Positions 8,728 to 33,349 of a stretch of DNA of 64,000 bases are shown one piece after another. Each line of letters begins with the position of its first letter. Position 1 is the stretch's first letter. The notes below the pieces were generated by a model that was given only the letters and a program-made list of their open reading frames with translations, did not search any database and was not told the origin of the DNA. The stretch covers positions 18,394 to 82,393 of the forward strand of contig JBNKBE010000026.1 in assembly GCA_050287085.1 (NCBI GenBank). Direction: 5' to 3'. The DNA is from Polyangiaceae bacterium (GTDB taxonomy: Bacteria > Myxococcota_A > Polyangia > Polyangiales > Polyangiaceae). The translations under genes were made by a program, and so were the position numbers.

Positions 8728-8728
8728 G

Positions 8729-10162: not shown

Positions 10163-10183
10163 AAGGTCTCCGTCGTTCGGAAC

Positions 10184-14512: not shown

Positions 14513-14986
14513 CGCGACCGACTCTTAGACTCGTCGAGCGCTTCTCGCGAATCGCAGCTGTCACCTGGGACTCATGGCGGCAAATTGTGAACGTTCCCGA
14601 CCGGTAGCCGCAAAGCTGCTTGCGTCCGAGCCGCAGCGATACAAGCGCCCCAGTTTTCCGTTGATCCGGAACGAACTTGAACGTGGAGTGCTCGAAGGTC
14701 ATCGAGAGTAGTAGATGCTTCGTCTTCGTCTTCGTCTTCGTCTTCGATTTGCCAGAGCACGTGTCGCTGCGGGATGCTGTCAGCAAGTCAGCCAAACGTC
14801 GCACGCGCCAGCGTCGACAGGATCACCGTGCTGTCGTGGTTGCGCTTCGATGCGTGCCGTGGGGTGGTCGAGGGGTACGCAGTCGATGCAAACCACGGTC
14901 TCCCCCGTTGCTTCTCCATGGACAGCATCAGGGCGCGGAACCACGCAAACGTCCGCACCTTTGGCTGAGCGGCCTTCGAGGGGCGC

Positions 14987-15487
14987 TCAGTGCGGCTGTC
15001 GCGCCATGAGCGGCATCAACCGGAATTCCCCCGTTGCGACGATGATACCAGCCCCGCCCACTTCCACGTTCCGTGTGAATCCGTCGGAAGCGGGGCTGAA
15101 GCGCACCTGCAATCGCGATGCGCGGTTCATTGCATCGCCCTGCTGGATTAGGAGTGTCCGCTTGGGATCGAAGCCAGCGTGTTCGACTAGGTGACACAAG
15201 AGCGGCGCGGCGGCAGAGCCGGTGCCGGGGTCTTCAGGAACACCATGCGCGGGCGCGAAGACGCGGAGATGAGCGCCGGAGCCTTCTGCGTGGAACACAT
15301 CGATGGTGTCCGCCGGCTGCTGAGCGAGAGCCGCCAAGTCTGGGGTCAGACGCTCCAGTGTTGCTCGGTCCGCTAGCTGCACCACGACATGACGCATTCC
15401 GTTGTCGTATTGCACAACGGGACTCGCGGTTTTTTCCACCCCGAGAGCGTCGAGCAAAGGCCGGCAGTCGGCGAAGGCGCCGGGCAA
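14987..15487 (-). pseudogene. PhzF family protein, C-terminal half only
   Basis: DNGMRHVVV, RVFAPAHGVPEDPGTGSAAAPL, QGDAMNRAS, VEVGG. No N-terminal PhzF half is visible upstream. Confidence 0.75.
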
Positions 15488-15710
15488 AGGCGCGCTTCGC
15501 GCAAACCAACCGTGCGGTTCGGCTTTGCCAGAAGCCCGGTGTGTGGTTCGGGTTTACACTCGGCGACCCGAGACCTGACATGAAGCGCCGGTTTCGCGAC
15601 GGGTTCGCGCGGGCGCGCCGCTACCAGGCTGGGTGATGAACAGGCTCAGGGACGCCGTGCGCGACCTTCACTCCACTCGGGGGCCGCGTGATGGGCCCCG
15701 CACGGAAGGT

Positions 15711-15787
15711 GTGTAGCTCACGCGCCCGGTGTAGCCCACGCGCCCGGTGTAGCTCACGCGCCCGGTGTAGCCCACGCGCCCGGTGTT
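15711..15787. repeat. 18-bp tandem repeat x4 upstream of the mot operon
   Basis: GTGTAGC(T/C)CACGCGCCCG at 15711, 15729, 15747 and 15765, with T/C alternating. Confidence 0.9.
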
Positions 15788-15953
15788 GCACCATGACGCG
15801 CGGGCCGCGTGTCCAGGCGAACAAGTGGTGGCGCTCGCCGCGCGGGGTTGCTAGCGTGGCGCGATGTCGTCCAGCAGCTCCGCGCGTGCGGCGAGGTGCC
15901 CACGCGAGCGTCCGAGAAGGGCCGGCAGGGCGACGAGCCCCTGGTCTACCCGC

Positions 15954-16607
15954 ATGGGCGGACGCCCTCGAGCGCTGCTCGTAGGAGTTCTATTCGGCCT
16001 GGGCCAAACGGGCTGTTCCACCGTGTACCGACCGCTGGCCGGTTTGAATCGCCCAGTGGTGGTGGACATCGAGACAGAGAACTTCAAGGGGGTTACGCTC
16101 CGGCTCCAATGCCTACCGGGCGACGTCGTCGATGAGGCGGAGGCCCGCACCCTGTGTACGAAGCTTCAGCACCTGTTCGAGAACCAGGGCGCCAAAGTGA
16201 CCGTGAGCACTTCCCTGTCGGAGGCGGAGCCTGATGAGCTCGGGGATGATGATGAGCTCGGGGATGAAGAGACCGCAGGGTCGCCAGCGCCTAACAAGAA
16301 AGCGGGCAACAGGCCGCAGCTGACCCTGCGTCTCGCCTCGCACCTGATTCACGAAGACGTCAGCAGCTACCTCTTCTTTGACGTCCGGACGGGCTACTCC
16401 TTCGCCCAAGAGGTCACGCTGACCGACGAGACAGGGTTTCTCCTTGTGCGGGAGCGCCTGACTGCCCAGTTCGAGGACCGGTTCATGGGCAGCCGGAACG
16501 GCGAGGAATTTTCGCAAGACTTCTACCGACAACTGAGCCAGCTGGCGGTGAATGCGCACGTGCGCCGTCAGGTGCTCGTAGAGTCGGCCATCAACCGCAG
16601 CAAGTGA
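15954..16607 (+). CDS. Lipoprotein, first gene of the mot operon
   Basis: MGGRPRALLVGVLFGLGQTGC signal/lipobox; alpha/beta body with an acidic loop. Confidence 0.7.
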   Translation: MGGRPRALLVGVLFGLGQTGCSTVYRPLAGLNRPVVVDIETENFKGVTLRLQCLPGDVVDEAEARTLCTKLQHLFENQGAKVTVSTSLSEAEPDELGDDDELGDEETAGSPAPNKKAGNRPQLTLRLASHLIHEDVSSYLFFDVRTGYSFAQEVTLTDETGFLLVRERLTAQFEDRFMGSRNGEEFSQDFYRQLSQLAVNAHVRRQVLVESAINRSK

Positions 16608-16613
16608 GAGACC

Positions 16614-17288
16614 GTGGCATTCTGGCTATTCGTCATCCTGTTCATGACTCCCGACCTGATGGAGGGCACGGAAAGCCCCCTAGAGGAAACCGTAGGGGAG
16701 GAGCGTCGCGCTCTGGATTGCGAGCCCTTGAGCATGGACGGAGCTCGCCACTATGCGCCCGGTGAGCTCGGGGAAAGCAGCCCACGCGGTGATTTCTTCG
16801 ATCGCCGGGCCGTCGTCTGCCGGGAACGCATCATGAGCTCCTCCGTGCGGCGCTCCGACGACGACGCGGGCCAAGGCCTCCGGGGCCCGCAGGACGACGC
16901 AGTGATGTTGGGTTTGCGTCATACGGCGCGGGAGCTGGCGAGCCTCGTGGGACAGCTGACGCCGTTCGAGCAGCAGCGCACATGGCTGGTCGAAGCGCAC
17001 TATCCGGGCACGGCCGTGAGCCAGAAGATCACTTTTGCCGTCAAGAACGAACTGCTCGACCGTGGTTTTCGCGTGACCGATCGGGCGCCGACCCTCGCCG
17101 TGGGTGACATCGAGGTGCTGGGTCAGCTCGACCCAGCGCGTGCATATCCGCTCGCGTGCGAGCGCTACGTTGCGACCGGGTCATTGCGGCCGGGGGATGT
17201 GCTCCTGGCCGTAGTCCTCAGAGATCCGCGGGAGACGGCCCTACACGCCGGACTCTGCGTCGATGGCAAGTGGCGTTGGCTTCGATGA
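16614..17288 (+). CDS. Hypothetical exported protein
   Basis: Hydrophobic N-terminus; 4 Cys; 6 nt after the previous stop; ATGA overlap with the next gene. Confidence 0.65.
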   Translation: MAFWLFVILFMTPDLMEGTESPLEETVGEERRALDCEPLSMDGARHYAPGELGESSPRGDFFDRRAVVCRERIMSSSVRRSDDDAGQGLRGPQDDAVMLGLRHTARELASLVGQLTPFEQQRTWLVEAHYPGTAVSQKITFAVKNELLDRGFRVTDRAPTLAVGDIEVLGQLDPARAYPLACERYVATGSLRPGDVLLAVVLRDPRETALHAGLCVDGKWRWLR

Positions 17289-18526
17289 GCGCACCCCAGT
17301 TTCCACCCGCCCTGCGCGACTTGCAGCGCCTCGGACTCGTCGCTTGGCGCTGGGTGCAACGGGTTGCGCTTGCGCTCGCGGTCCTGCTCCACAATGGGCC
17401 GGCCGCGGCGGAGCCCGCCACCGAGGCGCAAGAGTGGGAGCTCGCCAAGCTGCGCGCCCAGATTGCTGATCAGGTACAGCTCTCCGCCTACGACTTGCTC
17501 GACGAGCTGGTCTATCAATGGTCGCAGGCGCCCCCTTTCACGACGCCGACGCCCGTTTTCATCGCGGACGTGTCGGTGCCGGTGGGGCTCGGCACGGGCC
17601 TGCAAGCGCTGCTCGAGAATCATCTCGCGAACCTGCTGCTCGCCAACCCCACGACCCACGTGACCCTTTCACACTGCCCGGCGTGCACGGCCGTGGTGGT
17701 GCACAGCGGCAAGAGCGGAACGGTCATCTCTCGCGGCTTGGACAACCCGGAAGCGCTGGCCAAAGTGGGCGGGGCGGGGGGGCGTCACGGGCTGTACATC
17801 GACATTTCTGCCGAAGGTGCGTGGCTGGTGCTCCGCGCGCGCATCACCCAGCTCACGCCCGACCTGCCCGTGGTGTGGAGCCGCACGCTGACAACCACGG
17901 CTGGCACGCCGCCGCTCCTTCGCAGCCCCGCTGAACTCAAGTCGGCCGAGGACGCGCGGGCAGAGTATCTGGACGCGTTGCAGGGTACGGGTCCGCTGAC
18001 GTTCTTGACCACGTTTGCCATGCGCAGCTACGAGGGCAACCCCTTCAGAGCTATTCCGCCGCCCATCTTGTGGCTGCAGACGGGCCTCGAGCTCGACCTC
18101 ACCCAGGCTCGGGCCTGGAAAGGTAGCTTCGTATTGGGCGGTGCGTGGTTGCCCGACGCGTATATCGGCATGATGGCGCAGGCTCGCGTGAGCCGCTTGA
18201 TCAGCGGCCAAGCTCGATCGCTGACTCACCCCAACCTCTACTTGTTTCTCGGTGGCGCTATCATGACGTTGGACGGTCCGGCGATGGCGGCGTTCAGGGT
18301 GGAGAACGCAGAGCAGTTGCTCCGCGATGCGCAAGGCAACACCAGCACCCGGGCGAGCTTTGGCGCCTTGCACCTGGGCCTCGAGGCACGCGTCGGCAAC
18401 CGCATTGGCGCCGCCGTGTTCTTGGAGAACATGCCGTACTACCAGAACTCGGGAGAACTCGGTGCCGTGTTGGATTTGGGCATCGAGCTGCACAGCCTGG
18501 GTTTCGAGGTGTCGCTGTGCTTCTAA
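17285..18526 (+). CDS. Exported protein: periplasmic alpha/beta domain with CxxC plus probable OM beta-barrel
   Basis: Signal ending AAAEP; HCPAC; alternating beta-strands ending GFEVSLCF (terminal Phe). Confidence 0.65.
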   Translation: MSAPQFPPALRDLQRLGLVAWRWVQRVALALAVLLHNGPAAAEPATEAQEWELAKLRAQIADQVQLSAYDLLDELVYQWSQAPPFTTPTPVFIADVSVPVGLGTGLQALLENHLANLLLANPTTHVTLSHCPACTAVVVHSGKSGTVISRGLDNPEALAKVGGAGGRHGLYIDISAEGAWLVLRARITQLTPDLPVVWSRTLTTTAGTPPLLRSPAELKSAEDARAEYLDALQGTGPLTFLTTFAMRSYEGNPFRAIPPPILWLQTGLELDLTQARAWKGSFVLGGAWLPDAYIGMMAQARVSRLISGQARSLTHPNLYLFLGGAIMTLDGPAMAAFRVENAEQLLRDAQGNTSTRASFGALHLGLEARVGNRIGAAVFLENMPYYQNSGELGAVLDLGIELHSLGFEVSLCF

Positions 18527-19596
18527 GCGTCGCTGTGCTTCTAGTGATTCGAGCCCGCGGTGCTTTGCTGCAGGCGCGTGCTTTGCTGCGGGCGCGTGCT
18601 TTGCTGCGGGCGCCTGTCTCTGGGGCGGGGCGCGTTGCGTTTCTGGTGCTTGGGTTGGTGCTCAGCTGGTCTCTACGCGTCGGCGCCGCCCCCGCCGCGA
18701 CGAGCGACGCGTTCGAGCGCCTGGAGGAGCTCTTGGAAGTGCGCCAAGAGGAGGGGTTGCTCGACGCGCGCGAAGTCGCACCGATCATCCTGGTCCGGGC
18801 CCAACCCCGCTACAGTGAGTCCCAGGGGTGGTTTCAGACGCGCGCAGCGGCCGTGCTCGTTCGTGTGTTCGGGGCGGGGAGCGTACGCTTCTGCGAAGCG
18901 TGTATGGCGCCGCGCACGGAAGTGCAGGGGGGGCGTCTCGAACAGCATACGGGACCCGTGAGCCTGGATGAAGTCGTAGCGCTGGATGACCGCTATCGCG
19001 GAGACTCTGAGCGCGCACGTACCGCGGTGTGGTTGGAAGAAACGGCCACGGGCATCTCGATCCGCATCACGGATCTGCGTTCTGCGCGGATCGTGTTCGC
19101 CCAAAACGTCGACCCGTTGCTCGAGGAATACGACGGCGCGGCGCGCAACTTCCGGCTGAGTGAGGAGCTGGAGCGCCGCACCCGCGGGGAGAGCCTGACT
19201 CACGCCATCTTCGACTTTGGCATCTTGCCCGCGCAGCACGTGGCCTTCGAGTGGGTCGAGCAGTGGGGGGAGAGCAACAACAACCTGACCGGGGTCGTGC
19301 TGTCAGCGTTCGACCCGGCGGCTGGGATAGGGGCTGCCTACCACCGGGTCCTGCAGTGGCAGAACATCACGGTTGGCGTAGAAGGTATCGTCAGCATCCC
19401 TACCGCGATCGCGCAATCTGCCAGCGACACGGACGTGACTTTATTAGATCCTCTGTTCACGGCCGTCGGCGTCGTGCGCTGGCCGCTCTTCTCGAAGCAC
19501 TCGAACTATGGTGCCGTCTTGTCCCTCTCGACCAATGGTCGCTTGGCGATCGGCCTGTCTTTTCTCAACACCAGCTTCATCCCCATCCTGCCATGA
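18517..19596 (+). CDS. Probable paralog of the upstream gene (CxxC domain plus beta-barrel); start approximate
   Basis: Signal-like hydrophobic stretch; RFCEAC; ISIRITDLRSARIVFAQN; amphipathic C-terminal strands; ATGA overlap with the next gene. Confidence 0.65.
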   Translation: MLLSVAVLLVIRARGALLQARALLRARALLRAPVSGAGRVAFLVLGLVLSWSLRVGAAPAATSDAFERLEELLEVRQEEGLLDAREVAPIILVRAQPRYSESQGWFQTRAAAVLVRVFGAGSVRFCEACMAPRTEVQGGRLEQHTGPVSLDEVVALDDRYRGDSERARTAVWLEETATGISIRITDLRSARIVFAQNVDPLLEEYDGAARNFRLSEELERRTRGESLTHAIFDFGILPAQHVAFEWVEQWGESNNNLTGVVLSAFDPAAGIGAAYHRVLQWQNITVGVEGIVSIPTAIAQSASDTDVTLLDPLFTAVGVVRWPLFSKHSNYGAVLSLSTNGRLAIGLSFLNTSFIPILP

Positions 19597-20384
19597 CGAA
19601 CAGCCAGAGCATGAACCTAAAACCACCCAAGGTCGCGCGAGCGGTTGCCCTCAGCGCGTTTGCCCTCGCCATTGGCTCGGGGTGCGCCGCTCGCAACTAC
19701 ACGCACTACTTGATCGAGCCGGCTCCGAAGAAGCCGAAGCCCTTGGAGGAGGAGCAGGGCACGCTGCAGCGGCCGTTCGGCTTCGGCTCGACCACGACGA
19801 TGAAGATCGCTTGGAACGACGGCGAGATGCTGACGGAGGTCGAGGTACCGATGTTGGCCAGCGGGCAGCGCATTGTCGTCGAGCACACGGGTCAAGCATC
19901 GGACGTCAAGACCATACCCGCCACGCGTCTCGTGCCGCCGGTGCCGACGGCGGCGGACAAGTCCCTGGAAGAGGCGTATCGAGCGCGTGGCTTGAAGGTG
20001 AAGGAGGACGCGACCGCCGTCAGCATTTCGGGGTCACACACGCTGATGGTGCAGGCGCTCAAAGAAGGCAACTACCAGCTCGCTCTCGAACGGTGTGAGA
20101 TGGTTCTGGCTCGCTACCCGTCACACCCGCAGTTCATGCGAGCCAAGGCGTCGATCTTGTTGCTCATGGGTGAACGTGACAAGGCGATCGAGCTATACGA
20201 AGCCGCCGAAGAGATCGAGAGCGATCCAGAGGTGCGCGCCACGCTTGAGCGGCTGCGGCAAGAGGAGGGTGCAAGTATCGGTGGAGCGGCCCCGGCGCCG
20301 TCGGCGCCTGCAGCACCCTCAGCGCCAGCGGCGCCAGCAGCGCCCCCCGCTCTCCCGGGCCGCGCAGCTGAGGAGGGGCGCTGA
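19593..20384 (+). CDS. TPR lipoprotein
   Basis: Lipobox IGSGC; TPRs GNYQLALERCEMVLARYPSH...AKASILLLMGERDKAIELYEAA; Pro/Ala tail. Confidence 0.8.
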   Translation: MTNSQSMNLKPPKVARAVALSAFALAIGSGCAARNYTHYLIEPAPKKPKPLEEEQGTLQRPFGFGSTTTMKIAWNDGEMLTEVEVPMLASGQRIVVEHTGQASDVKTIPATRLVPPVPTAADKSLEEAYRARGLKVKEDATAVSISGSHTLMVQALKEGNYQLALERCEMVLARYPSHPQFMRAKASILLLMGERDKAIELYEAAEEIESDPEVRATLERLRQEEGASIGGAAPAPSAPAAPSAPAAPAAPPALPGRAAEEGR

Positions 20385-21118
20385 TGCAACTGTTCGGCAT
20401 AGCGCTACTCGGCCTCGTCGTCTGGTTCTCCTTTCTCGAGCTTCCGCCGGGGCCGATCAAGGCGCTGGACTTGCACGCGCTCGTCATCGTGCTCGGCGGC
20501 TCGTTTGCGACCATGATCACCAGCTCGAGCGCCCGGGCGGCGCTGCAAACGGTGGTCTGCATTCGAGAGCTCATCCCTTTTGCAGGGAGCTTGCACGGCA
20601 CCAGCCAGCGACTGGAGCAGGAGCGCGAGCGCTTCTCCCAGCTGTGGCGGGAAGGCAAGCGCGCCCAGGCTGTCGAACTGGCTGAGGGCAGCGAGCTCGT
20701 GCCCATTCGCAAGATGCTCGAGCTCGTGTTGGCGCGTGCGCCCAGGGAGATGACGGAGACTGAGTTTCTCAAGTTGCGTCACCAGGAGGTCAGCCGATGG
20801 CAGCCCGCCACGTCCAATTGGGAGGGCCTGGCCAAGCTCGGCCCCTCTTTCGGCTTGCTCGGTACGGTCAGCGGCATCGTGCAGCTCTTCGGACAGATGG
20901 GCAACGATGACTTCGAGATCGGCACTTCGATGTCGCTTGCCCTGCTCTCGACCCTGTACGGCATTGTCCTCGGGACCGGTATCGCGGGTCCCGTCGGTCA
21001 GTACTTGAGAAATCTACTCGATGAACGCCTCGGGGCGCTCAGCCGTTGCCGGCAGAGCGTCGTGGAACTGGCAGAAACTCGAGGCCACGAGCCAGGTGGG
21101 CTGGAGCTGAGAGGCTAG
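20384..21118 (+). CDS. motA: MotA/PomA-like stator subunit
   Basis: LDLHALVIVLGGSFA (TM2), cytoplasmic WREG, GPSFGLLGTVSGIV (TM3), IGTSMSLALLSTLYGIV...GP (TM4). Confidence 0.88.
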   Translation: MQLFGIALLGLVVWFSFLELPPGPIKALDLHALVIVLGGSFATMITSSSARAALQTVVCIRELIPFAGSLHGTSQRLEQERERFSQLWREGKRAQAVELAEGSELVPIRKMLELVLARAPREMTETEFLKLRHQEVSRWQPATSNWEGLAKLGPSFGLLGTVSGIVQLFGQMGNDDFEIGTSMSLALLSTLYGIVLGTGIAGPVGQYLRNLLDERLGALSRCRQSVVELAETRGHEPGGLELRG

Positions 21119-21120
21119 TT

Positions 21121-21747
21121 GTGGAATACCGGCGCCCCCCCGAAGACGAGCCGTGGCTACTGTCGTTTGCGGACCTGATGACGAACTTGCTGATCTTCTT
21201 CGTGATGTTGCTATCGGTTTCCGAGGTGAGCCAAACGCGCATGCAACAACTGACCCAGAGCCTCTCCGGAAAGACCAGCGAGACCAGTTTGGAAGCTATC
21301 CAAAAGGAGGTGGAGCAGGGCATCCGCGAGCGCAAGCTGGAAGAGCTGGTGTCGACTGAACTCAGTGATCGGGGCCTGGAACTGCGCCTGAACTCGGGCG
21401 TCGTTTTCGACTCCGGGCAAGCCGTCATTCGAGAGGAGTGGGTGACTACGATGGATTCGATGCTGCAGGCCCTGGTCCCCTATGCCGGTCGCTACCGCTT
21501 TGCGGTAGAGGGGCACACGGATACTCGTCCCATAGCGCCAGGTGGGCGATACGCCTCCAACTGGGAGCTCTCCTCTGCGCGTGCTCACGCCGTGCGTCAG
21601 CGCCTGGCAGCGCTCGGGATCGCGCCCGGTCGCACGAAGGTCGAAGGCTACGCGGATACGGTTTCGCTGCCGGCGGCTGAACTCGAGGGGCTTTCTGAAG
21701 CCGAGCGACTCGCGCGTCACCGACGTGTCGTCGTGAGGGTGTACTGA
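21121..21747 (+). CDS. motB: MotB-like stator subunit (TM Asp, plug, OmpA-like PG-binding domain)
   Basis: WLLSFADLMTNLLIFFVML; FDSGQA; VEGHTD..PI; SNWELSSARA; GYADT; RRVVV. Confidence 0.92.
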   Translation: MEYRRPPEDEPWLLSFADLMTNLLIFFVMLLSVSEVSQTRMQQLTQSLSGKTSETSLEAIQKEVEQGIRERKLEELVSTELSDRGLELRLNSGVVFDSGQAVIREEWVTTMDSMLQALVPYAGRYRFAVEGHTDTRPIAPGGRYASNWELSSARAHAVRQRLAALGIAPGRTKVEGYADTVSLPAAELEGLSEAERLARHRRVVVRVY

Positions 21748-23582
21748 TGAAGACGTTTGGAACTCTGCTGCTCGCGTGCGGCGCGCTGCTTTGTGCCGGA
21801 GCCGCCGCTGCCCAGTCACGATCCACCGCCGAACGACCCGTACCACAAGCGGTGCTGGCGCAGGTCCGGCAGGTAGAAAACGACTTTCGCCGCGCGCTGG
21901 CGCAAGATTGCGCTCCCGAGCGGTGCTTCGCCAAAGTGTGCGTGCATGTTGCACACACCGTTGTCAACGCCCAGGAGTCGCACTCCTTGCCCGGGCTCAA
22001 CCTGGAGCCGCCCCCCGGGCTGGGTGATACGCCAGGGCAAGTGCACCTGACGAGCGTCGAGTGCAGCTTTGCGCACGACCCCTCGGTGCGCGCCAAAGAC
22101 GCCGCCGCGCTGGCCATGCGCTTGAAAGCCAAGCTCTCCCGCGCTTGGACGGACGTGGACGTCGTCTATGAAGAGCTGCCAGCGGTGCGCGCGGAGCTCA
22201 GCAAGTCGCCCTTGCCGGACCCCCAAGTGCCGTATCCGTACTCGCCGGCGCCTGCGCCGCCCGAGCCGGAGCTGAAGCCGGAGCCAGCGGCGGAGCCTCC
22301 GGCGCCCGAGCCGCCGCCATTGCCGGCATGGGACAACGCTCAGCCCAGTCGGGAGCTGTGGCTCAGTCTGCTCCCGCACTTCTCGTGGATGTTGGGGTTG
22401 GTACTTCTCACGTTTGCAGCATTGATCCTCATCTGGGCGGCCAGGCGCCTCGGACGCATGTCACCCGAAGAACAATTGCTCCTGTCGCAATTGGCTCAGG
22501 AAGGCGCTGGCACGTCGCCCTCTTCGGACGCGGCGGCGGCTGCCGAGGTGACCGAAAGCGAGCCGATGAAGCGCTGGCGTGCGCGCATGGAGGCGAGCGG
22601 CCAGAGCGGCAAAGCGGATCCGGCGCTGCAAGCATTGGTCAAAGATCTGCTGCGCCATCGCGAGTACGCCATGCTCGCCAAAGCGGCGTTGTTGTTCCCG
22701 GAGCAGCTCCCGAAGGCTTTCCCCGCTGACGGTGAGCTGGCCAACGCCCGGTTGGCGCTCGCCGAGTACCTAAAGGAGGCGGACACCGACCGCCTGCCCT
22801 CGGACGAGGCGTTTTTTGCCAAACTGGACCGCCACGCGGTGTCCGCGCAGCTGACGGCGGACGCCGATGCGGACCTGCTCCGCGGCTTGCACGACGACTT
22901 CGGAGCGCGGGCGCTGGTTCAGGCTCTCGACGTGGTGCCGGCCCGTCACGGGGCGCTACTGTTCGCCCATGCCGCAGTAGAGATGCAGCACGAGGCGGCT
23001 GAGCTGATGAAGCCCGAGCGAGTCGCGAGCGTGGTCGACTCGCTCATGCGCTCCAATCGTGTCGATCCAGCCGAGACCGCTTATCTGTTGCGACTATTGG
23101 GTGCGCTCCGCACCGGGTCGGAGCTGCCCGCGGCGCCTGCCGTCGATGCCGTGTCCGACCGCGGTGAAGTGTTCAACGCGACGGCTGCGCTCTCCATACT
23201 GCTACCGCGACTCGCTCCCGAGCGGCGAAACCAACTGGTCGAAGCCGTGCGAACGCAACACAACGGCAAGCTCCCGAGTTGGCTGCGCGGCATCCTCTAC
23301 GGGAAGATGCTGCTGGAATTGAGTCCCAGCCAGCGCACGGACATCTTGCTCGAGGTGGAGGCTACCCAGCTGGCGTCCTGGCTGCAGGTGCAGGCCCAAG
23401 ACAGCCGGGCCGCGTTGCTTTCCGAGGCGCCCGCCTCGCTTCAGGCCGCGCTGTCGGGCGCACGCGTGCCGAGCGCACTTCGCGAGCGCTACGCGCTCGC
23501 CGAAGCCGGCCGCGCGGCGCTGTCGGCCAGCTTGTTGCGTCGCATCGGACCCGATTTCGCTTTCCACACCCTGCTCGGCTGA
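21747..23582 (+). CDS. Membrane-anchored protein with periplasmic domain and FliG middle/C-terminal-like cytoplasmic region
   Basis: Signal, Cys-containing periplasmic domain, Pro-rich linker and one TM (FSWMLGLVLLTFAALILIWAA). PARHGALLFAH...LMKPERVASVVDSL...VDP resembles FliG-M. LLELSPSQRTDILLEVEATQLASWL...RAALLSEAP resembles FliG-C. Pattern match by eye only. Confidence 0.6.
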   Translation: MKTFGTLLLACGALLCAGAAAAQSRSTAERPVPQAVLAQVRQVENDFRRALAQDCAPERCFAKVCVHVAHTVVNAQESHSLPGLNLEPPPGLGDTPGQVHLTSVECSFAHDPSVRAKDAAALAMRLKAKLSRAWTDVDVVYEELPAVRAELSKSPLPDPQVPYPYSPAPAPPEPELKPEPAAEPPAPEPPPLPAWDNAQPSRELWLSLLPHFSWMLGLVLLTFAALILIWAARRLGRMSPEEQLLLSQLAQEGAGTSPSSDAAAAAEVTESEPMKRWRARMEASGQSGKADPALQALVKDLLRHREYAMLAKAALLFPEQLPKAFPADGELANARLALAEYLKEADTDRLPSDEAFFAKLDRHAVSAQLTADADADLLRGLHDDFGARALVQALDVVPARHGALLFAHAAVEMQHEAAELMKPERVASVVDSLMRSNRVDPAETAYLLRLLGALRTGSELPAAPAVDAVSDRGEVFNATAALSILLPRLAPERRNQLVEAVRTQHNGKLPSWLRGILYGKMLLELSPSQRTDILLEVEATQLASWLQVQAQDSRAALLSEAPASLQAALSGARVPSALRERYALAEAGRAALSASLLRRIGPDFAFHTLLG

Positions 23583-23588
23583 TCTCTC

Positions 23589-25802
23589 GTGGCCTCTCGT
23601 GCGCTTTTCACACCCTGGTCGAAGTGGTTGCTGGCTCTTGCAACGCTCGCGGCTACGGCGTGCAAGGTGCCCATCAGTCAACTGAATGCCGAGTTCTCGT
23701 TGGCTGACGCCTCGTGGTTCGAGGAGGAAGAGACGCTGTTTGTGTTCTACCAGGTGCAAGCAGAGCATGAGCTTGGCGCAGAGAGCGTAGTCGAGCTCCG
23801 CTACACGACGGACGACGGGGTCACCCGCTGGCAGGAGCTGTCCAGTCTACCCCAGGTGCACCGTCACCTCGCGGTAGACTGCGGCGCTCGCACATTGTGT
23901 GGCAGCGGGAGCCTTCACGTGCCGCTCGAGCCCCGAGAAGTCCACCTGCGGCTGCGTTATCATCGGGACGGTGAGCTCGCGCTGCTACCCACCACCGCGT
24001 TCAACGTGGTGGGGCCCGGCGCGCCGCATACGAGTCGCAGCGTCTTGATCTACGGCGTTTTCGACAAACACAACCGCGCGCTGCAGTGGTGCGCGCGCCA
24101 CGTCTTTCCCACCGTCCGCAATGAGCAGGCGGAGCGCCTAGGCCTCCGCCGCTGGTTCAAGGTCGAAGCACAGTGGGGTGACGACACGGTCGAGCCACGC
24201 GCCCAGGCGTCGTCGGTAGCGGATATCCCTGGGGCTCTCGGCCTCGGAGGGGACAGCGAGGCGCTCGACCCTGGGGCGAGCGGCGGGCCCGGCTCTCTCT
24301 TTCCGCTGGGGGGTACACCCGCGACGGCAAAGGACGACAATCCCTATCGTTATGGTGTGGACTGCGTCGCGCCGGAGACGACGCTGGAGCTAGTGCCCCC
24401 GGAAAGCGACGAACGAGCTGTCTTCAACGAGGAAGATCTTCCGAGCGCGGCGTCGGCGGCTACGCGCATCTGTGCCGAGGCCGTGGTGCAGACTGCCATC
24501 GGTCCTTTTAAGACCATTGCGGTGGCCCGAAAGAACCCGGAAGTGCGTCCGGCCTTTCCGGTCCTCCGCAGCCCCATCCAGGAAGCTACGCAGATCAAGT
24601 ATCTGCTGTCCGTGTGCGAGCGCACCATCTCGGCGAAGCACCTGGCCATGCAGCGGCAGCGCCTCCAGTTGGAAGACGTCGTCCCAATTTGCATCGACGA
24701 TTGGAACGAGACGTTGTCCGACGCACTTGTCGAGAGACTGGCCAGCGACCTAGAGCGCGTCCGCGCGGAGGGCCACGACATGGTGCTCAGTATCGCATTG
24801 CATCATGACACACCCGGGTTGCGCGCGGAAGTGGAGGAAGCGCTTGCGCTGGTACTCGCGCCGGAGCGTCAACGTACGACGCCCCGGCTGGCGGGCGCCT
24901 TCGTGTTCGATAGTGTGCCCTTTGCGGTAGATGATGCGACGGTGGGGCAGACTACGCTCTGGTGTCCGGCAAGCATCGTGCCGTCCACGGGTTCGGGGGG
25001 GGCGGGGGCGATGGACGGTGCGGCAGGCGGGGGCGGGACGGGGGGCGCGGGAAGCGAAGAGACATCTCCGCTTCAGGGCAACACCTCCATCGCTAGCCTG
25101 GCCTGCGTTGTCGTGCCGGATACGAGCCTGAGCTTGGGCCCTTTCTCCATCGCCGGTTTACCCATCTTGCCGTCGCGAACACAGTACCTGAAGTTCCTGG
25201 AGACCTACTCCGACGACGAAGCGGGTCACGTCGAGTCGCTCGCTTTTCTGACGCCCGAGCTACCGCCCACGTCTGACGCGGTACCCATACCGCCCATCGG
25301 CATGGCGTCATTTCTCAATGATGAGTCGATCGAAGCAATCGCAACCGATGCTTTCTCCTTCTGCGGCTCTGCCGGCGAGTATCAGGGTTTCGTCTTCCGC
25401 TCGGCCACCAGTCCTCAGCCCGTGCCGCTCGCCGCGTTGCCCGCGTGGCACAACGCGCTCAGCGAGACGAGTTACGATCTGGGCTTGGTCTGGGAGTTCC
25501 CATTCTTGTTGCGCCTCGAGTACGAAACGGCGATTGCAGCGGCGGTGAGCGCGTTTTCGGTGAGTGTGCCGTTTGGTTATCCCATCGATTCAGCCCAAGA
25601 GTTTGGCAGCAGCTTGTGGCTGTCCAACACGTTTCCGCTCGCAGAGAGCCTGACTCAGTGTCGGCGCTTCTGCGACCACCCCGCGTTCGACTCAGCGGGG
25701 GTCTACCAGGTCGGCGCGGGCTTCCGCACGCTCTACGCCAACAACTGCTACAAGCCTCGCTATCCGGAGCGAGGGGACTCGGGGTTTCCCAGTGATCCTT
25801 GA
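23589..25802 (+). CDS. Large Cys-containing lipoprotein of unknown function
   Basis: Lipobox LAATAC; 737-aa ORF with Gly-rich linkers; co-oriented within the operon. Confidence 0.75.
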   Translation: MASRALFTPWSKWLLALATLAATACKVPISQLNAEFSLADASWFEEEETLFVFYQVQAEHELGAESVVELRYTTDDGVTRWQELSSLPQVHRHLAVDCGARTLCGSGSLHVPLEPREVHLRLRYHRDGELALLPTTAFNVVGPGAPHTSRSVLIYGVFDKHNRALQWCARHVFPTVRNEQAERLGLRRWFKVEAQWGDDTVEPRAQASSVADIPGALGLGGDSEALDPGASGGPGSLFPLGGTPATAKDDNPYRYGVDCVAPETTLELVPPESDERAVFNEEDLPSAASAATRICAEAVVQTAIGPFKTIAVARKNPEVRPAFPVLRSPIQEATQIKYLLSVCERTISAKHLAMQRQRLQLEDVVPICIDDWNETLSDALVERLASDLERVRAEGHDMVLSIALHHDTPGLRAEVEEALALVLAPERQRTTPRLAGAFVFDSVPFAVDDATVGQTTLWCPASIVPSTGSGGAGAMDGAAGGGGTGGAGSEETSPLQGNTSIASLACVVVPDTSLSLGPFSIAGLPILPSRTQYLKFLETYSDDEAGHVESLAFLTPELPPTSDAVPIPPIGMASFLNDESIEAIATDAFSFCGSAGEYQGFVFRSATSPQPVPLAALPAWHNALSETSYDLGLVWEFPFLLRLEYETAIAAAVSAFSVSVPFGYPIDSAQEFGSSLWLSNTFPLAESLTQCRRFCDHPAFDSAGVYQVGAGFRTLYANNCYKPRYPERGDSGFPSDP

Positions 25803-26937
25803 GCGCGGGACTTCTGAGCGCGGGACTTCTGAGCGCGGGATGCTGGCGCTCCGGGGCTTGGCAGGCGGGAGCCCCCGGCGCAGCGGGCTCTGGGTGCTTC
25901 TGCTCGCCACTTTGGGAGCCGCTACGCCCGCATGGGCCGCGCTGAGCGAGCCTGCCGCGGGGGCACAACCGCTAGCCGCTGCCGAGCCCGAAGCCGCTAT
26001 CGATACCGAAACGTCCGAGTCGGCTGGGGTGAACGTCGCTTCAGAGGCGTCCGGGCGCACCGGGGCGGCTGAAGGCGGAGCCAGCGCAGCGGAACCGGGC
26101 GCAGCGGAGCCAGGCGCAGCGGAGCCAGGCGCAGCGGAACCAGGCGCAGCGGAACCGGGCGCAGCACCCGAAACAACGCAGCCGCCGCCTCCGCTTGCGG
26201 CCGAAGGCCCCGAGCTGGAACACGAACCCGATGCGCGCGTGGACGCATACCGCACTCCGTTCGATGCCCTGATGCAGCGGTCAATCGGGAGCACGTCGCG
26301 GCGCGTGCTCTACGATTGGCGGCGCGCGAACTTGCAGCTGCGGGCCGTCTTCGCCATCCCTGCAGAGCTCAACAACTTCGAAAGCCGGCGCGCAGGTTTG
26401 GGGATCCGCGTGCCCACCGACGGCGTGTTGCTGGCGTTCGACGTTTCTTACGTGGCGGTCAGCGGCAGCGTCAGCAGCCGACAGCTGGCTCTGACGCCCT
26501 ACCGTCAACCGGGACGACCAACTCGTCTCCAAGTGGACGCGAGCTTGCTCTACCCTCTAGCCGAAGGGATCATGACGGCCGCCCGCGACTTCGTGCCCGA
26601 CTCGGAGCTCGTCTTCAGCGCTGCCGGACGGCTCAGCTACCACTTCTATCCGTCGGCGTATCGCGACATGACGTGGACGCAGGCGCTGGCATCAACGGTT
26701 GCTCCCAGCCTTTCCGACAAGGCGCTTAGAAACTTGGCGCGCGCGGGGCTGCCCGGCATGGAAGTCGACAGGGCGCGCTACTCGCTCATGCTGGGGGTTG
26801 TGACGGACGTGTACTTCCGTCGGGGTGCGTTCTTTGGGGTGGAGAGCTTGGTGGGGTTGCCGCTGCTCGGCTTTGTGACGAACACGAAGATGGACTACGG
26901 GTTCGAACTCGGCATTTCGCTGGGGTTGTCCCTCTGA
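25792..26937 (+). CDS. Probable outer-membrane beta-barrel protein with AEPGA repeat linker (start may be ATG 25840)
   Basis: Signal ending PAWA; 15-bp repeat at ~26084-26166; alternating strands ending YGFELGISLGLSL. Confidence 0.65.
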   Translation: MILERGTSERGTSERGMLALRGLAGGSPRRSGLWVLLLATLGAATPAWAALSEPAAGAQPLAAAEPEAAIDTETSESAGVNVASEASGRTGAAEGGASAAEPGAAEPGAAEPGAAEPGAAEPGAAPETTQPPPPLAAEGPELEHEPDARVDAYRTPFDALMQRSIGSTSRRVLYDWRRANLQLRAVFAIPAELNNFESRRAGLGIRVPTDGVLLAFDVSYVAVSGSVSSRQLALTPYRQPGRPTRLQVDASLLYPLAEGIMTAARDFVPDSELVFSAAGRLSYHFYPSAYRDMTWTQALASTVAPSLSDKALRNLARAGLPGMEVDRARYSLMLGVVTDVYFRRGAFFGVESLVGLPLLGFVTNTKMDYGFELGISLGLSL

Positions 26938-28991
26938 TGACCCCGCTCGCGGGAGCCTCGTACCCGGGCGACGAGGGCGCGAAGCGCAGCTGGGCGAAGC
27001 GCGCAGCTGGGACACGCGCAGCTGGGACACGCGCTGCCGGGACACGCGCTGCTGGGACACTTCTCGTGTTGGGGCTGCTGTCATGCGCCCACGCGCCGGG
27101 TGTTGGCACTGCGCCGGATGTGGACACTGCCCCCAGCCCGCAAGCACTGACCTACTACAACGCGCGCCTAGCGCTGCGCGAAGAGCGTCCCTCGGAGGCA
27201 CTGCGGTTTTGGTTGCTGCGCAACGCCATCGAAAGCGAAACGCGCAGGGTGAGTGCCCACGATGCGGATTTCCGGTCCGCCGTGTGGGTGGCGCTGGGTG
27301 ATTCGGCGTTATGTCCGGACGGATTCCCCCGCGACTCGGCGGCGGAGGGGGGCGCCGGGCTCTGGCCGCTGGCGGTCCACAACTGGGTGGTGCACACGCG
27401 ACTTCGTCCCGCGCCGGCAAGTGATAGGGCCCCCTTCGATGCCTTTGCGCACGGCTACCAGCGGCGCGACGTGCAGCTAGAAGACGTGCTTTCGGCGAAG
27501 GAGCTCGAAGCGCTTCGTTTCTCCCGCGGAGACTGCTGGCAACACCTTCTCATCCAGCAAGCGGCCGGCGTCTGGAGCACCAGTTTGCGCGAGCCAGATG
27601 CGGCTGCACACGTCCTCCGTCAGTTGCTGCGCAGTGCCCTGGCAACGGTGCCGAAGGACCGCGTGGTGGGCCGGGCGGTCGTGGCCGCCCGGATCTTCGA
27701 CTTGAACCTCAAGCTCGCGCAGCTGGCCGCTCGCAAGCAGCGCAAGCAACAGCGCGAGGCGCGTCTTCGTGCCGGCGTCGTGGCAACGAGCACCCACGAC
27801 GTGCAAGCCGTCCCCCTTGCTTCTGAAGAAGGCGCCATCCTGATGCAGAGCTTGAAGTGGTCGGCCGAAGAGTGGATGACGCTCTCGACCGAGCGACGAC
27901 TGTTTCTCTTCGCCCACGCCGTCCGCGCGGCGCCCCACGCAAATACCGAGCGTCTGAGGCTGGCCATCATGGACGCTTTGATCAAACGTCGCCGAGGAGC
28001 GGAGCTGGAAGGCTGGCTGGCGTGGTGGGTGTCCGGCCCCGCCGAGCAGTCTGCGTCCTCCGGCGAGAGACTCGAAGCGCTGGAACGCGCCGTGTGGTCC
28101 GGTGAACGCGGTGCCCAGCTGCTCGCCCTCGACCTGGAAAGCGGGTTCCGGGAGCGCGCCGTGATCGCCTTGCACCGCGGTATCGACGCGCTGACTCGCG
28201 GTGACCAGGCGGAGGCACTGCGTCTCTTGGCACATGCTCTGCGCTGGGCTGACGACTCGCGAGACGGAAACACGGTGAGGAACTTGGCTCGGCGCTGGTT
28301 GTCCTTCGTTGCGGCCCAGTTCCAGGTCACGGACGAGTTGTTGCTGATGCTGCGCAACGTTGCTCCACGGTCGGAGCTCTCGGCCATCTTGGAAGATCAA
28401 GTGTGGCATGCCGCGTTCGCGGGCGACGCGGCATCTTTCGAGCGGTGTGCGCTTCATCTCGGTACGCGTGGTGCGCTGGCGCAGCGCGTGCAGCTTCTTC
28501 GGCCCCTAGCGCAAGACGACGCCGTCGCTTTCGTCACCACGCTGCGGACGGCAGACGAGAAGTCGCCCCAGCTTACGACGGCGCTCTCGAAACAACTGCT
28601 CGACCGGCTGCAGGCCGAGCCCGAACCAGTGCGCGTGCGCGAGCTCCCGCTGCTTCGTGAACTCGAGTCCTTGCTCGGGGAAAGCCTGGAGCGAGCTCAG
28701 GGCCGCGGGCGTAGCCAGCGCAAGAGGGAAGCAGTCCTGCTACAGATCCGCGCCCTCATCGAGGGCACGGCAGGGGTGGCAGACGACGAAGCCTCGCGCG
28801 CCCGCGCGTTGTCACCGGAGCGAGAGGTCTTCGTGGGCAGTCTGCGGCTTGCGCCGAGCGATCCGGTACCCTGGCCGTTCGTCGAACCCGAGCTCGAGGC
28901 TCCACCGGTATTTACTCCACTCCGGCTGCGGCCCGAGGAGTGGGCGGCTGCGAGCGGTGAGCTCGTCTTTGGCTGGAGGGTGAGCGACTGA
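26937..28991 (+). CDS. Alpha-helical/TPR-like lipoprotein
   Basis: Lipobox LLSC; helical repeats (YYNARLAL...EALRFWL; LHRGIDALTRGDQAEALRLLAHAL); TGATG coupling. Confidence 0.7.
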   Translation: MTPLAGASYPGDEGAKRSWAKRAAGTRAAGTRAAGTRAAGTLLVLGLLSCAHAPGVGTAPDVDTAPSPQALTYYNARLALREERPSEALRFWLLRNAIESETRRVSAHDADFRSAVWVALGDSALCPDGFPRDSAAEGGAGLWPLAVHNWVVHTRLRPAPASDRAPFDAFAHGYQRRDVQLEDVLSAKELEALRFSRGDCWQHLLIQQAAGVWSTSLREPDAAAHVLRQLLRSALATVPKDRVVGRAVVAARIFDLNLKLAQLAARKQRKQQREARLRAGVVATSTHDVQAVPLASEEGAILMQSLKWSAEEWMTLSTERRLFLFAHAVRAAPHANTERLRLAIMDALIKRRRGAELEGWLAWWVSGPAEQSASSGERLEALERAVWSGERGAQLLALDLESGFRERAVIALHRGIDALTRGDQAEALRLLAHALRWADDSRDGNTVRNLARRWLSFVAAQFQVTDELLLMLRNVAPRSELSAILEDQVWHAAFAGDAASFERCALHLGTRGALAQRVQLLRPLAQDDAVAFVTTLRTADEKSPQLTTALSKQLLDRLQAEPEPVRVRELPLLRELESLLGESLERAQGRGRSQRKREAVLLQIRALIEGTAGVADDEASRARALSPEREVFVGSLRLAPSDPVPWPFVEPELEAPPVFTPLRLRPEEWAAASGELVFGWRVSD

Positions 28992-29008
28992 AGCGCCCCA
29001 ATTCCCCC

Positions 29009-29701
29009 GTGACGCTCCGCGGAAAGGCCCTCCGCTTGGAGCGCAAAGCGGCGCTCCAAGCGCGTCGCGCGGCGCTCGCTCAACGTCTTGCTGCCGTCCG
29101 GGCCGACGTGCGCGACAAGAAGGCCCGCTTGCGTGCACGCGGTCCAGGGCAAGACGCGCGGCTACGTCGGCTCTGGCGCAAGTGGCTGCTGCTACTGCTG
29201 CTGGTCATTCTCTTCTTCTGTTTGCGGCGTTGCCAAAGCTGTGAGCCAATGCCTCCCGCACCAGCGCCTGCTGACGCGGGATTGGACGCTGGCGCTCCGG
29301 CGTCGGCCTCCGTGTCATCGCCCGCGGCGCCCACTCGCGTCGCGAGGCCGAGCCCGCGGCGACCTACCCAGCCCGAGCCGCGTCCGACCTACGAGAGCAG
29401 CCCCCCTGGGCCCGAGCGCTGGCTGACCGATCTGCGCCTTCAAGTCGCTGCTCGCAGCCCGCGGCTTTCACGCTGTTTCCGCGGTGCCGAGCACCCCGGC
29501 GCCTTGCGTTGGACCGCGGTGGTCGATCTCACCCGCGGCGTAGCGTCCGATGCGCACATCGAGCTGCTTGGCAGCGCCCCGCCCTTGCCGAAGGCCATGC
29601 GGACTTGCCTCTTGGAGGTGCTGTCGGCCCCGTCGTACCGCTTGCCCCCACCGACCACCAATACGCCACCGCCGCGCGTGTCGCTGGTGGTGGAGTTCTA
29701 G
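29009..29701 (+). CDS. Single-TM protein with Pro-rich linker and TonB-C/AgmX-PglI-like C-terminal domain
   Basis: Basic coiled N-terminus, TM WLLLLLLVILFF, Pro-rich spacer, then RLSRCF...GALRWTAVVD...RTCLLEVL..YRLP..RVSLVVEF. Confidence 0.6.
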   Translation: MTLRGKALRLERKAALQARRAALAQRLAAVRADVRDKKARLRARGPGQDARLRRLWRKWLLLLLLVILFFCLRRCQSCEPMPPAPAPADAGLDAGAPASASVSSPAAPTRVARPSPRRPTQPEPRPTYESSPPGPERWLTDLRLQVAARSPRLSRCFRGAEHPGALRWTAVVDLTRGVASDAHIELLGSAPPLPKAMRTCLLEVLSAPSYRLPPPTTNTPPPRVSLVVEF

Positions 29702-29877
29702 GGGCCAGGGAGCTGCTCCTCGAGCAGCATGGGCCCGGTGCGCTGCGTGTTGGCGCCTCCCGCTAAGCGAGCGCCGAGTTCGCGCTCCGCCCGGAGCACG
29801 CGCTCGGCGCCGTCCGCTGGGGTCGTCCCAGCCACGGGCCGCGCAACGTCCACCTAGCGTAGCGCGGCCCAGGCTCG

Positions 29878-30876
29878 TCAGAGCGAAGCGCTCGTTGGCT
29901 CGCGGCGAGCGTACAAGTAGAAGTCGCCCTCCACCTCTCCGCTCAGAAGCTGAACTTGGAGCAGCAGACTGCCCGGAAACACGGAGCGATGACTCACGCT
30001 GAGGCATTCCTCCGTGGGAGCCGTCTTGTCTTCCTCGACCACGTCACTCATGAGCCATCCGGCGGGCGGCGTTTCCGCGCGATCGAGCTCGGCTCCGTTG
30101 AAAGCATCCGTGAGGCTCAAAGCCAGCGCGCGGTCGTAACAGTCGGAGAGTGTAAAAGTGTAGCTAGCGCCGGCAGGAATGTCGACCTGGAACCACCAAC
30201 TGCGCGGCGTGTCAGCCTCACTGAAGAGCCCGTGGCCACACGCGGACTCGAGCGGCAAGGGCACCGGCTCGGCCGCCCTGGAAGCGTCGTAGCTCTTCGA
30301 TTGAAGGCACTGCGCGGCGCCCGTCACGGCCAGCACATCAGCATAAGGCAACAGGTCGTCGCCTGCCGCGCAGTCGCCGTCGACGGCGCGGTACTCCGCG
30401 GACGTACCGTCCTCCTCGCGGACGCTAACCTGAGCCACCACGGCGTCCTCTGGGCAACTCCCAGCGTCGCTGGCTGGCAGCAGGTCGAGCGCCGAGAGTT
30501 TGCTGCTTTGTTCGAGGGTCAGTTCAGCCCGGGACAAACGGACGCGGAAGGTCCCATCTTCGAGCGAGCCGACCGTTACATCGAAGCGGTCGCTCGTGTA
30601 CCGCCATACCCCGTCCGCGGGCGCACTTTTGCAGCCGCCCAGCCCGCCGCTGACCAGGGTGCAGGCGACAAGTGCCGCGGCGCTCAGCCCGCTTCGCGCG
30701 CAGGCCCGGTGGCTCGCGCACCGCAGTGTGCCCGCGCACCGCAGTATGCCCGCGCTGGTCGATTGAATCGGGCCCCGCGCCCCGCTTTCTGCTGCAGCCC
30801 TGGGCCTATGCGGCGTGGTCATGCCGTGGGCTATACCACCTCGCGGGGCGCACCCAAAACGGTTCATTCGAGACAC
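29878..30876 (-). CDS. Hypothetical lipoprotein (start uncertain)
   Basis: Lipobox LGGC; acidic, Cys-paired beta-rich body. Confidence 0.6.
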   Translation of the reverse strand: MSRMNRFGCAPRGGIAHGMTTPHRPRAAAESGARGPIQSTSAGILRCAGTLRCASHRACARSGLSAAALVACTLVSGGLGGCKSAPADGVWRYTSDRFDVTVGSLEDGTFRVRLSRAELTLEQSSKLSALDLLPASDAGSCPEDAVVAQVSVREEDGTSAEYRAVDGDCAAGDDLLPYADVLAVTGAAQCLQSKSYDASRAAEPVPLPLESACGHGLFSEADTPRSWWFQVDIPAGASYTFTLSDCYDRALALSLTDAFNGAELDRAETPPAGWLMSDVVEEDKTAPTEECLSVSHRSVFPGSLLLQVQLLSGEVEGDFYLYARREPTSASL

Positions 30877-31397: not shown

Positions 31398-31415
31398 AAT
31401 GAAAATGACTTGCAA
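31398..31415. promoter_or_regulatory. Possible Fur-type box
   Basis: AATGAAAATGACTTGCAA in an AT-rich patch upstream of the imelysin/TBDR operon. A second weak site lies at ~31516-31536. Confidence 0.45.
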
Positions 31416-31527
31416 GAGCATCTAGGGAGGCGTAAGAGACACAGGTACGCCTCAAACGGCCCACTTCTGCTTGTGGAGCGCGTTGATAGGAGGCCCTGGT
31501 CAAGTGATGAAGGGAAATTGACAATCA

Positions 31528-33255: not shown

Positions 33256-33349
33256 GCGGAGCGGACTGGCTGACGAGAGGCGGGGAGTCCCGGGCCGCTG
33301 GACGCATTGTCCGCCACGGGCTCCTCTGCGGAAGCAACGCAATCAGGCG

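Follow-up and report, generated by a model that had tools for sequence, protein, structure and literature searches.

FliG is treated as specific to the flagellum, and how its gear of stator and rotor arose is an open question. Stators whose B subunit combines a plug with an OmpA domain are wall anchored and gated, a layout described as typical of the flagellar type rather than of ExbD or TolR (PMC12505986). Among other motors of the cell envelope, the Glt complex is reported to comprise the TonB-like GltG, which is bound directly by AglR, together with TPR proteins, OmpA-like barrels, and lipoproteins (PMC3169522), and the type IX motor is presented as a stationary 5:2 motor that works on a ring together with an outer-membrane complex (PMC13104615). 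Here, we describe an operon of 12 genes (g01 to g12; positions 15954 to 29701, strand +) in a 64,000-nucleotide stretch of the genome of a Polyangiaceae bacterium (GCA_050287085.1, contig JBNKBE010000026.1; hereafter, the window). The operon encodes a MotA/MotB stator (g06 and g07), a membrane protein that carries FliG (g08), and nine further envelope proteins. The 12 genes are one co-inherited unit, kept in two phyla (in myxobacteria and in relatives of Bdellovibrio) and independent of flagella, and we are confident that they specify one non-flagellar, ion-driven envelope machine, likely an undescribed motor that would pull on the cell surface rather than spin a flagellum.

The component that distinguishes this operon is g08. 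The earlier note on this DNA, made from its letters alone, had reported FliG-like segments in the protein, which turned out to be an understatement, as structure comparison and profiles together identify all three FliG domains (N, M, and C). In an AlphaFold 2 (AF2) model with a predicted local distance difference test (pLDDT) value of 85, a signal helix is followed by an alpha/beta domain (residues ~28 to 147), a proline-rich linker, a transmembrane segment (~198 to 236), and a helical, FliG-like part (~300 to 610). Residues 305 to 610 match full-length FliG in structure comparison, and the model aligns with FliG_C at a Z score of 10.1 (root-mean-square deviation [rmsd], 2.6 over 87) and with FliG_M at 8.5 (rmsd, 2.2 over 80). 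Profile comparison agrees: a deep g08 alignment compared with a profile of 30 FliG sequences yielded 97.75% in hhalign (E value of 1.3e-12, 291 columns), with lower values for weaker inputs: 20.6% when the g08 alignment was shallow and 0.1% when the target was a single host FliG. A broad profile of the g08 family retrieves canonical FliG at an E value of 3e-17, and the Atlas neighbors of g08 bear FliG families, with shares of 11 to 96%. Foldseek returned no match at an E value of ≤0.001, with FliG chains occupying ranks 1 to 7, and the Pfam match of g08 is to MgtE_N (E value of 3.1e-5), a family found in 36 of the 71 members, with FliG_C in one. Taken together, g08 is a FliG fusion that contains a complete FliG homologue.

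The stator genes belong to the flagellar type as well. The best NCBIfam models for both g06 and g07 are flagellar stators, all below cut-off and with PomA and MotP leading for g06: MotA matches PomA at an E value of 1.3e-12 versus 0.056 for TolQ, and MotB matches flagellar MotB/MotD models at 5.7e-34, while ExbD is reached only at 0.083 (Pfam). The low TolQ score, together with the plug and OmpA domain of MotB, upholds the separation from the gliding motor AglRQS that had been drawn from the sequence. The ion path appears intact in the alignments, with the channel aspartate of MotB in 65/65 sequences and Pro154, Thr161, and Pro203 of MotA in 53/53 (Thr190 in 50/53), residues that take part in ion flow in Escherichia coli and Vibrio. 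Ten residues past the channel aspartate, 60 of the 65 MotB sequences have a valine; by a rule from Bacillus, this suggests that the stator is coupled to protons.

The operon is conserved as a unit. The 12 co-oriented genes are open and uninterrupted, and with refined starts the 11 junctions from g01 to g12 measure 6, -4, 8, -4, -1, 2, -1, 6, -11, -1, and 17 nucleotides, that is, between an 11-nucleotide overlap and a 17-nucleotide gap, in line with the tight spacing reported before. A promoter and terminator scan gave results at chance level. Using 71 aligned g08 homologues, we located 76 loci in GTDB genomes, which belong to Archangium, Hyalangium, uncultured Myxococcaceae, Bradymonadia, one Nannocystaceae, and one Silvanigrellaceae. 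For all genes detected, gene order is that of the window in 76/76 loci; the full set of 12 genes is present in 41/76 and in 37 of the 39 loci with long flanks on both sides. Five genomes with incomplete loci were tested, and g03 and g09 were both present in each of them. In the phylum of the Silvanigrellaceae, full-length g08 occurs in 29/131 genomes at an E value of <1e-85, and motA, motB, g03, g04, g05, g09, and g10 adjoin it in 12/12 fetched loci, with motAB inverted ahead of the operon in seven. The suggestion of a self-contained unit is thereby borne out. When flanks were clustered, the most common neighbor reached at most 11 of 47 loci, so that the unit is bounded by g01 and g12. A 1.8-Mb, single-contig genome of the host's family (G066) holds all 12 genes in order (L096, G066:C1:1776000-1795999), each one broken by stops, frameshifts, or both. 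In that genome, the TIGR04565 and NF033768 genes have stayed open, and there is no match to flagellin. In two further loci (L070 and L081), the g08 matches are split and may be frameshifted. One operon (L019) lies on a contig titled as a Bifidobacterium breve metagenome-assembled genome, and its MotA clusters with Myxococcota, which probably reflects a binning or labeling error.

The spread of the operon is patchy (2/201 genomes of the order in a strict search; 19/301 of Myxococcota). This distribution and the variable flanks are also what a Zorya-like anti-phage sensor could show, and MotB does match ZorB models (best E value, 5e-18). Such a sensor is nevertheless highly improbable: MotB scores higher on the flagellar MotB/MotD models, MotA (244 residues) has neither a ZorA match nor a long tail, and the other 11 proteins are without a PADLOC match or a nuclease or helicase effector. 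Inspection of the flanks of the 47 loci revealed no defense or catabolic context.

Whether such an operon serves the flagellum can be judged from its hosts. The earlier note had called it flagellum-less, which holds for the operon but not for the cell. Among the 12 proteins, no FliM/FliN, export gate, rod, hook, or filament component was found (Pfam and NCBIfam), nor, as that note had also claimed, did any flagellar family appear among the other window ORFs (Pfam on 31 of 45 heuristically called ORFs). However, the host genome (6.2 Mb, 96.8% complete) has a long, near-complete flagellar cluster (G000:C21:22700-72800, genes named by ORF inspection) on a contig with a FliG_C match (1.8e-34) and its own MotB and MotA, the motAB pair lying ~13 kb from the main cluster; the genome has five Flagellin_N matches. 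On another contig (C4), genes for TIGR04565, a model of GltA/B/H-type barrels, and for NF033768 score above cut-off, and we interpret them as a Glt locus of their own. It is therefore likely that this cell combines a flagellum and gliding parts with the operon. FliF is present in 59/151 genomes of the phylum, so that flagellar genes are common in these lineages.

Given a host with a full flagellum, the operon might be an auxiliary stator or a flagellar remnant. Bdellovibrio is described as using several MotAB pairs (PMC11323537), and a flagellin-family match occurs in 44/75 carrier genomes versus FliF in 59/151 genomes of the phylum, figures that come from different markers and from kin that are not independent. 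Yet the remaining 31 of the 75 carriers have no flagellin match (many are incomplete metagenome-assembled genomes), and flagellin and rod genes were absent from all five cultured Archangium/Hyalangium carriers, two of them titled complete; in three of these five, the operon's MotB is the sole MotB. Conversely, 43 of the 44 flagellated carriers have at least two MotB genes, and in this host the flagellum has its own MotAB, with the operon's MotA in a clade apart. In a tree of 96 MotA sequences, the 53 from operons form one group (Shimodaira-Hasegawa-like approximate likelihood ratio test, 91), separate from 29 MotAs of flagella, taken from these hosts and from the genome studied here (97), and from 13 MotAs of the sister module described below (95). 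The tree, a quick version with a single outgroup whose branch is very long and without E. coli or Vibrio references, resolves the three groups but neither the root nor the order of events. A glutamate that flagellar stators carry at position 98 of MotA is also absent from the operon's MotAs. Intact operons in complete, non-flagellated genomes thus largely refute a role as flagellar helper, which we regard as very improbable: the operon is independent of flagella. As a separate observation, in contigs of five flagellated carriers (G201:C15, G204:C11, G213:C193, G254:C56, and G264:C7), two MotB-plug matches lie within ~800 bp of each other and look like motB genes in tandem.

A relative of the operon offers a view of its descent. 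Besides the 12-gene operon, A. gephyra SDU49 carries a second, homologous locus of 10 genes (L082:2591-12605; G263:C1), the sister module, whose order is kept in 12 further fetched loci (L084 to L095; all ten genes in 10/12) and which is present in 20/201 genomes of its order, Myxococcales. Profile matches between sister module and window cover 7 of the 12 window genes, namely, g03 (95.5%), g04 (67.6%), g05 (94.5%), motA (98.4%), motB (100%), g08 (97.4%), and g12 (94.9%); for g01, g02, g09, g10, and g11, no profile match was found in the sister module. The sister fusion passes the Pfam FliG_C cut-off, has the FliG acidic pair in 13/13 sequences, and has a basic residue at the position of Arg281 in 9/13, which argues for a stator-rotor pair as the ancestor of the family. 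Its barrel matches TIGR04565 at an E value of 3.9e-8, below cut-off, and is not homologous to g10 by hhalign. A core of five genes, which encode the fusion, MotA, MotB, a barrel, and a TPR lipoprotein, is present both in the sister module and in one locus of another group (L199). That locus belongs to a second FliG-tailed family, with open frames of ~740 to 930 residues, which is widespread in the phylum of the Silvanigrellaceae (L199 to L204; e.g., G826:C1:984704 and G743:C52:111672). L199 was the one of six fetched loci with motAB, TPR, and barrel genes beside the FliG-tailed frame; the other five had no nearby match to operon profiles. A weak FliG_C match in a further genome (G236) was matched by none of the 12 operon profiles.

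The envelope proteins are less readily named. Directly recognizable by Pfam are g05 (TPR), g06 (MotA/ExbB), and g07 (MotB plug and OmpA), which agrees with the earlier calls, and, weakly, g08. The calls of three barrels (g03, g04, and g10) and a TonB-C-like protein stand on indirect evidence, with no direct family match for any of them (Pfam and NCBIfam, including Pfam on g03 and g12 family members, where 0/45 and 0/50, respectively, were informative). PDB-sequence profile searches with the g08, g03, g04, g09, and g12 alignments gave nothing below an E value of 0.2. A C-terminal phenylalanine (45/45) and an alternating hydrophobic pattern mark g03, whose Atlas look-alikes (PF13505, PF13036, and PF03783; scores of 0.94 to 0.95) serve as leads only; both g03 and g04 resemble a small barrel joined to a periplasmic domain of the CsgG/LpoB type. 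Compared directly, their profiles match weakly (4.4%), but both find their sister-module counterpart in the same gene, the only g03-like one there, which makes g04 a likely paralogue of g03. By its alternating pattern and its C-terminal phenylalanine or leucine (36/40), g10 looks like a third barrel. Of the four lipoproteins proposed before, g01, g05, and g09 are backed by their families, whereas g11, with a lipobox-like motif in 3/45 members, is a lipoprotein by the window sequence only. In the AF2 model of g09 (pLDDT, 85), two Ig/FN3-like domains are accompanied by an alpha/beta domain of Rossmann type and, at the C terminus, by a beta domain; fold searches gave generic Ig and Rossmann matches (best Z, 6.9), among them vWA for the alpha/beta domain (Z, 6.4; rmsd, 3.2 over 116). 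A CglB-type vWA adhesin with a metal-ion-dependent adhesion site (MIDAS) motif is a part of the Agl-Glt machinery. Type IX secretion, Glt, and SusD folds are absent among the g09 matches listed, an absence that does not exclude them. Finally, g12 has a transmembrane segment at residues 54 to 72 and a median N-terminal net charge of +16 over 50 members.

With a TonB-like g12, three predicted barrels, and Ig-like domains in g09, one might picture an import machine, in which the barrels take up polymers derived from prey or the environment, g09 binds them at the surface, and the motor pulls. Import systems do have surface binding lipoproteins, such as SusD-like proteins, and both the loss of the operon in the 1.8-Mb reduced genome and its patchy occurrence in Myxococcota would suit this function. 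We consider it unlikely, however, as none of the 12 proteins has a TonB-dependent receptor or plug domain (Pfam), the predicted strand region of ~180 residues or less is small for a polymer channel, and the flanks of 47 loci are without conserved catabolic genes.

We propose that MotA5B2 docks on peptidoglycan and would conduct ions, probably protons, while g08 would polymerize into a ring via its periplasmic domain and FliG repeats; engineered FliF-FliG fusions are reported to form rings (10.1101/2023.02.06.527414). MotA would turn or ratchet the g08 ring, and would do so one way, because the locus is without a FliM/FliN switch. As such a ring has neither export gate nor rod, the work would exit via g12, whose basic cytoplasmic helix could meet acidic residues conserved in g08 (528, 532, 536, and 538). 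In turn, g12 would tug on an outer-membrane complex of g03, g04, g10, g05, and g11, which may export g09 to the cell surface or display or move it there. Compared with the traveling motors of Agl-Glt style, such a stationary motor would be better suited to contact with surfaces or prey, or to energized outer-membrane transport. For the chain as a whole, from stator through ring and g12 to g09, we see even odds. The same balance holds for the wider reading, to which we give a probability of roughly 0.5, that the operon represents a new class of rotary nanomachine, combining the flagellar stator-FliG gear with trans-envelope parts that are Glt-like. In it, a ring of single-chain rotors without a switch would drive a TonB-like arm that acts on an outer-membrane complex, in a family of five-, 10-, and 12-gene forms that has a rewired torque interface and occurs in myxobacteria and in relatives of Bdellovibrio.

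Several observations weigh against this rotary reading. The equivalents of the torque residues Arg281, Asp288, and Asp289 are canonical in 0 of 71 g08 sequences each, compared with 29/30, 28/30, and 28/30 in flagellar FliG (numbering as given in PMC12505986; positions via sequence alignments rather than superposition), and on the stator side the equivalent of Glu98 is a glutamate in 0/53 MotAs and hydrophobic in 53/53, while that of Arg90 is basic in 45/53. The loss of these charges, which the earlier note had not seen, weakens the interpretation of g08 as a rotor: either the torque interface is rewired, or the ring no longer turns. Regarding the ring itself, the N-terminal domain of g08 resembles FliF RBM3 (Z, 8.7; rmsd, 3.9 over 94), in fold only, and is outscored by unrelated C-terminal domains of CDF transporters (Z, 10.0; rmsd, 1.8 over 76); by profile, the match reaches 0.2% (15.6% for the sister fusion), so that a FliF fusion is a lead. 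This domain has four cysteines that are invariant in the family alignment, and a predicted complex of four copies of g08 residues 26 to 152 (score of 0.25, mark of 0.42) was not used as evidence. Farther out, the TonB link of g12 is weak, being transitive via its sister homologue, whose C-terminal match to NF033768 (AgmX/PglI) lies below cut-off at an E value of 0.012; g10, g11, and g09 are unmatched to the sister barrel, TPR-like protein, and lipoproteins (hhalign); and the DxSxS motif occurs in 1 of 60 g09 members. Nor was a peptidoglycan hydrolase or axial part recognized in the operon that could take work through the wall.

These points bring up a static scaffold, in which the FliG-like ring docks and activates stators without turning and MotA itself winds g12, as ExbB, TolQ, and AglR do with TonB, TolA, and GltG, thereby energizing outer-membrane transport. 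The disappearance of torque charges on both sides, the TonB-like layout of g12, and the direct AglR-GltG binding (PMC3169522) are consistent with it, and a ring that does not rotate requires no wall opening. On the other hand, all three FliG domains are retained, the MotB plug and wall anchor are those of flagellar stators, the sister module has both the FliG acidic pair and a g12 homologue, and the invariant Arg81, Trp88, and Gly91 on the torque face of MotA fit a rewired interface. We view the scaffold as the main rival, less likely than the rotary machine, which we retain as our preferred reading.

Table 1. Genes of the operon in the window (positions in nucleotides of the window; fractions, family members with the feature)
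Gene	Position	Strand	Product and features
g01	15954..16607	+	217-aa lipoprotein, no known family (no Pfam/NCBIfam match); lipobox-like motif 38/47 members; Cys21 invariant
g02	16614..17288	+	224 aa; likely periplasmic, with four invariant Cys and, at the N terminus, a short hydrophobic anchor or signal (alignment, homologue N-termini); no Pfam/NCBIfam match
g03	17285..18526	+	413-aa exported protein; predicted CsgG/LpoB/TolB_N-like alpha/beta domain and predicted outer-membrane beta-barrel
g04	18535..19596	+	353-aa exported protein; likely g03 paralogue with predicted barrel
g05	19593..20384	+	263-aa TPR lipoprotein; TPR_19 E 9.9e-8; lipobox-like motif 53/60
g06	20384..21118	+	MotA, 244 aa, PomA/MotP-like; PF01618 E 2.9e-14
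g07	21121..21747	+	MotB, 208 aa; PF13677 MotB_plug 5.6e-16 and PF00691 OmpA 1.2e-12, both over cut-off
g08	21747..23582	+	611-aa single-chain rotor-like protein with complete FliG homologue
g09	23589..25802	+	737-aa lipoprotein; candidate surface-exposed output; lipobox-like motif 49/60
g10	25792..26937	+	381-aa predicted outer-membrane beta-barrel; signal peptide
g11	26937..28991	+	684-aa exported protein; helical repeat (TPR-like) by inspection; weak HemY_N match, E 0.0067
g12	29009..29701	+	230-aa TonB-like protein: basic cytoplasmic helix, one transmembrane segment, proline-rich linker, small C-terminal domain

Many short tandem repeats of 15 or 18 nucleotides are scattered across positions 14267 to 31856 of the window (e.g., 15711-15786, 18560-18613, 25800-25840, 26075-26165, and 26984-27060), one of them upstream of g01; several insert repeats of 5 to 6 residues near the N termini of g04, g10, and g11, without counterpart in homologues. 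Elsewhere in the window, a DUF5122 propeller lipoprotein, an imelysin, an HTTM/gamma-carboxylase-like protein, and a TonB-dependent receptor follow one another at 31528 to 38416, likely an iron-uptake locus that is not among the conserved flanks of the operon. Positions 7112 to 11097 hold a cluster for salvage of NAD (NUDIX, nicotinamide phosphoribosyltransferase, and NrtR regulator), and 1997 to 5209 (strand -) encodes a 1,071-residue exported protein with a vWA domain which, as far as checked, is unlinked to the operon elsewhere.

If the rotary reading is true, nature would here be seen for the first time to use FliG apart from the flagellum. A compact machine that is Sec-exported and brings its own stator and a single-chain rotor would show that the gear needs neither a type III export gate nor a filament to work. 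It would also be a small test system for torque generation without the textbook charged residues. Because the operon is intact in cultured, non-flagellated Archangium and Hyalangium, deletion, imaging, and electron cryotomography are direct, and A. gephyra SDU49 offers a natural comparison, since it carries the 12-gene form alongside the sister form, in which the acidic pair is retained. Such work may bring to light a new activity of these lineages at the surface, in prey contact, or in transport. As the earlier note had supposed, no description of such a system was found in the full-text literature searched. Chlorobium reportedly has a natural FliF-FliG fusion gene, mentioned in structural papers on FliF and FliG, which did not turn up in this search; it could mean that the fusion itself was noticed earlier.

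On the features tested, the operon falls outside all described systems with which we compared it. It shares with the flagellar motor core MotA and MotB with plug, OmpA-like anchor, and ion-path residues, as well as a complete FliG homologue right behind a transmembrane helix and a periplasmic fold resembling FliF RBM3. It differs in that FliG is fused to a membrane protein with a signal peptide and without RBM1-2, in that FliM/N, export gate, rod, hook, filament, and the canonical torque charges are missing, and in that nine of its envelope genes have no counterpart in flagella. The Agl-Glt system of Myxococcus (AglRQS and GltA-K) offers the same list of parts, that is, an ion motor, a TonB-like, proline-rich inner-membrane protein, exported TPR proteins, barrels, and lipoproteins, a likeness to which the sub-cut-off TIGR04565 and NF033768 matches of the sister module add; however, its motor is of the TolQR type instead of a wall-anchored MotAB with a FliG protein, none of the 12 window proteins matches a Glt model (NCBIfam), and the host holds its TIGR04565 and NF033768 genes separately. 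With Ton and Tol (ExbBD-TonB and TolQRA), the operon has in common the 5:2 ion-motor family and a candidate TonB-like transducer, but its B subunit has the MotB plug and OmpA domain, and FliG is present. Type IX secretion and gliding (GldLM with the GldKN ring) is alike in its working idea; the predicted ring of the operon, in contrast, sits in the inner membrane, and no protein of the 12 has a family match to GldL/GldM or GldK/N (Pfam and NCBIfam scans). Zorya ZorAB likewise uses a MotAB-like, wall-anchored stator without a flagellum, but the operon is without the ZorA tail and the ZorC/D/E effectors and has FliG. We infer that the operon works like the flagellar gear joined to a transmission of Glt or Ton style.

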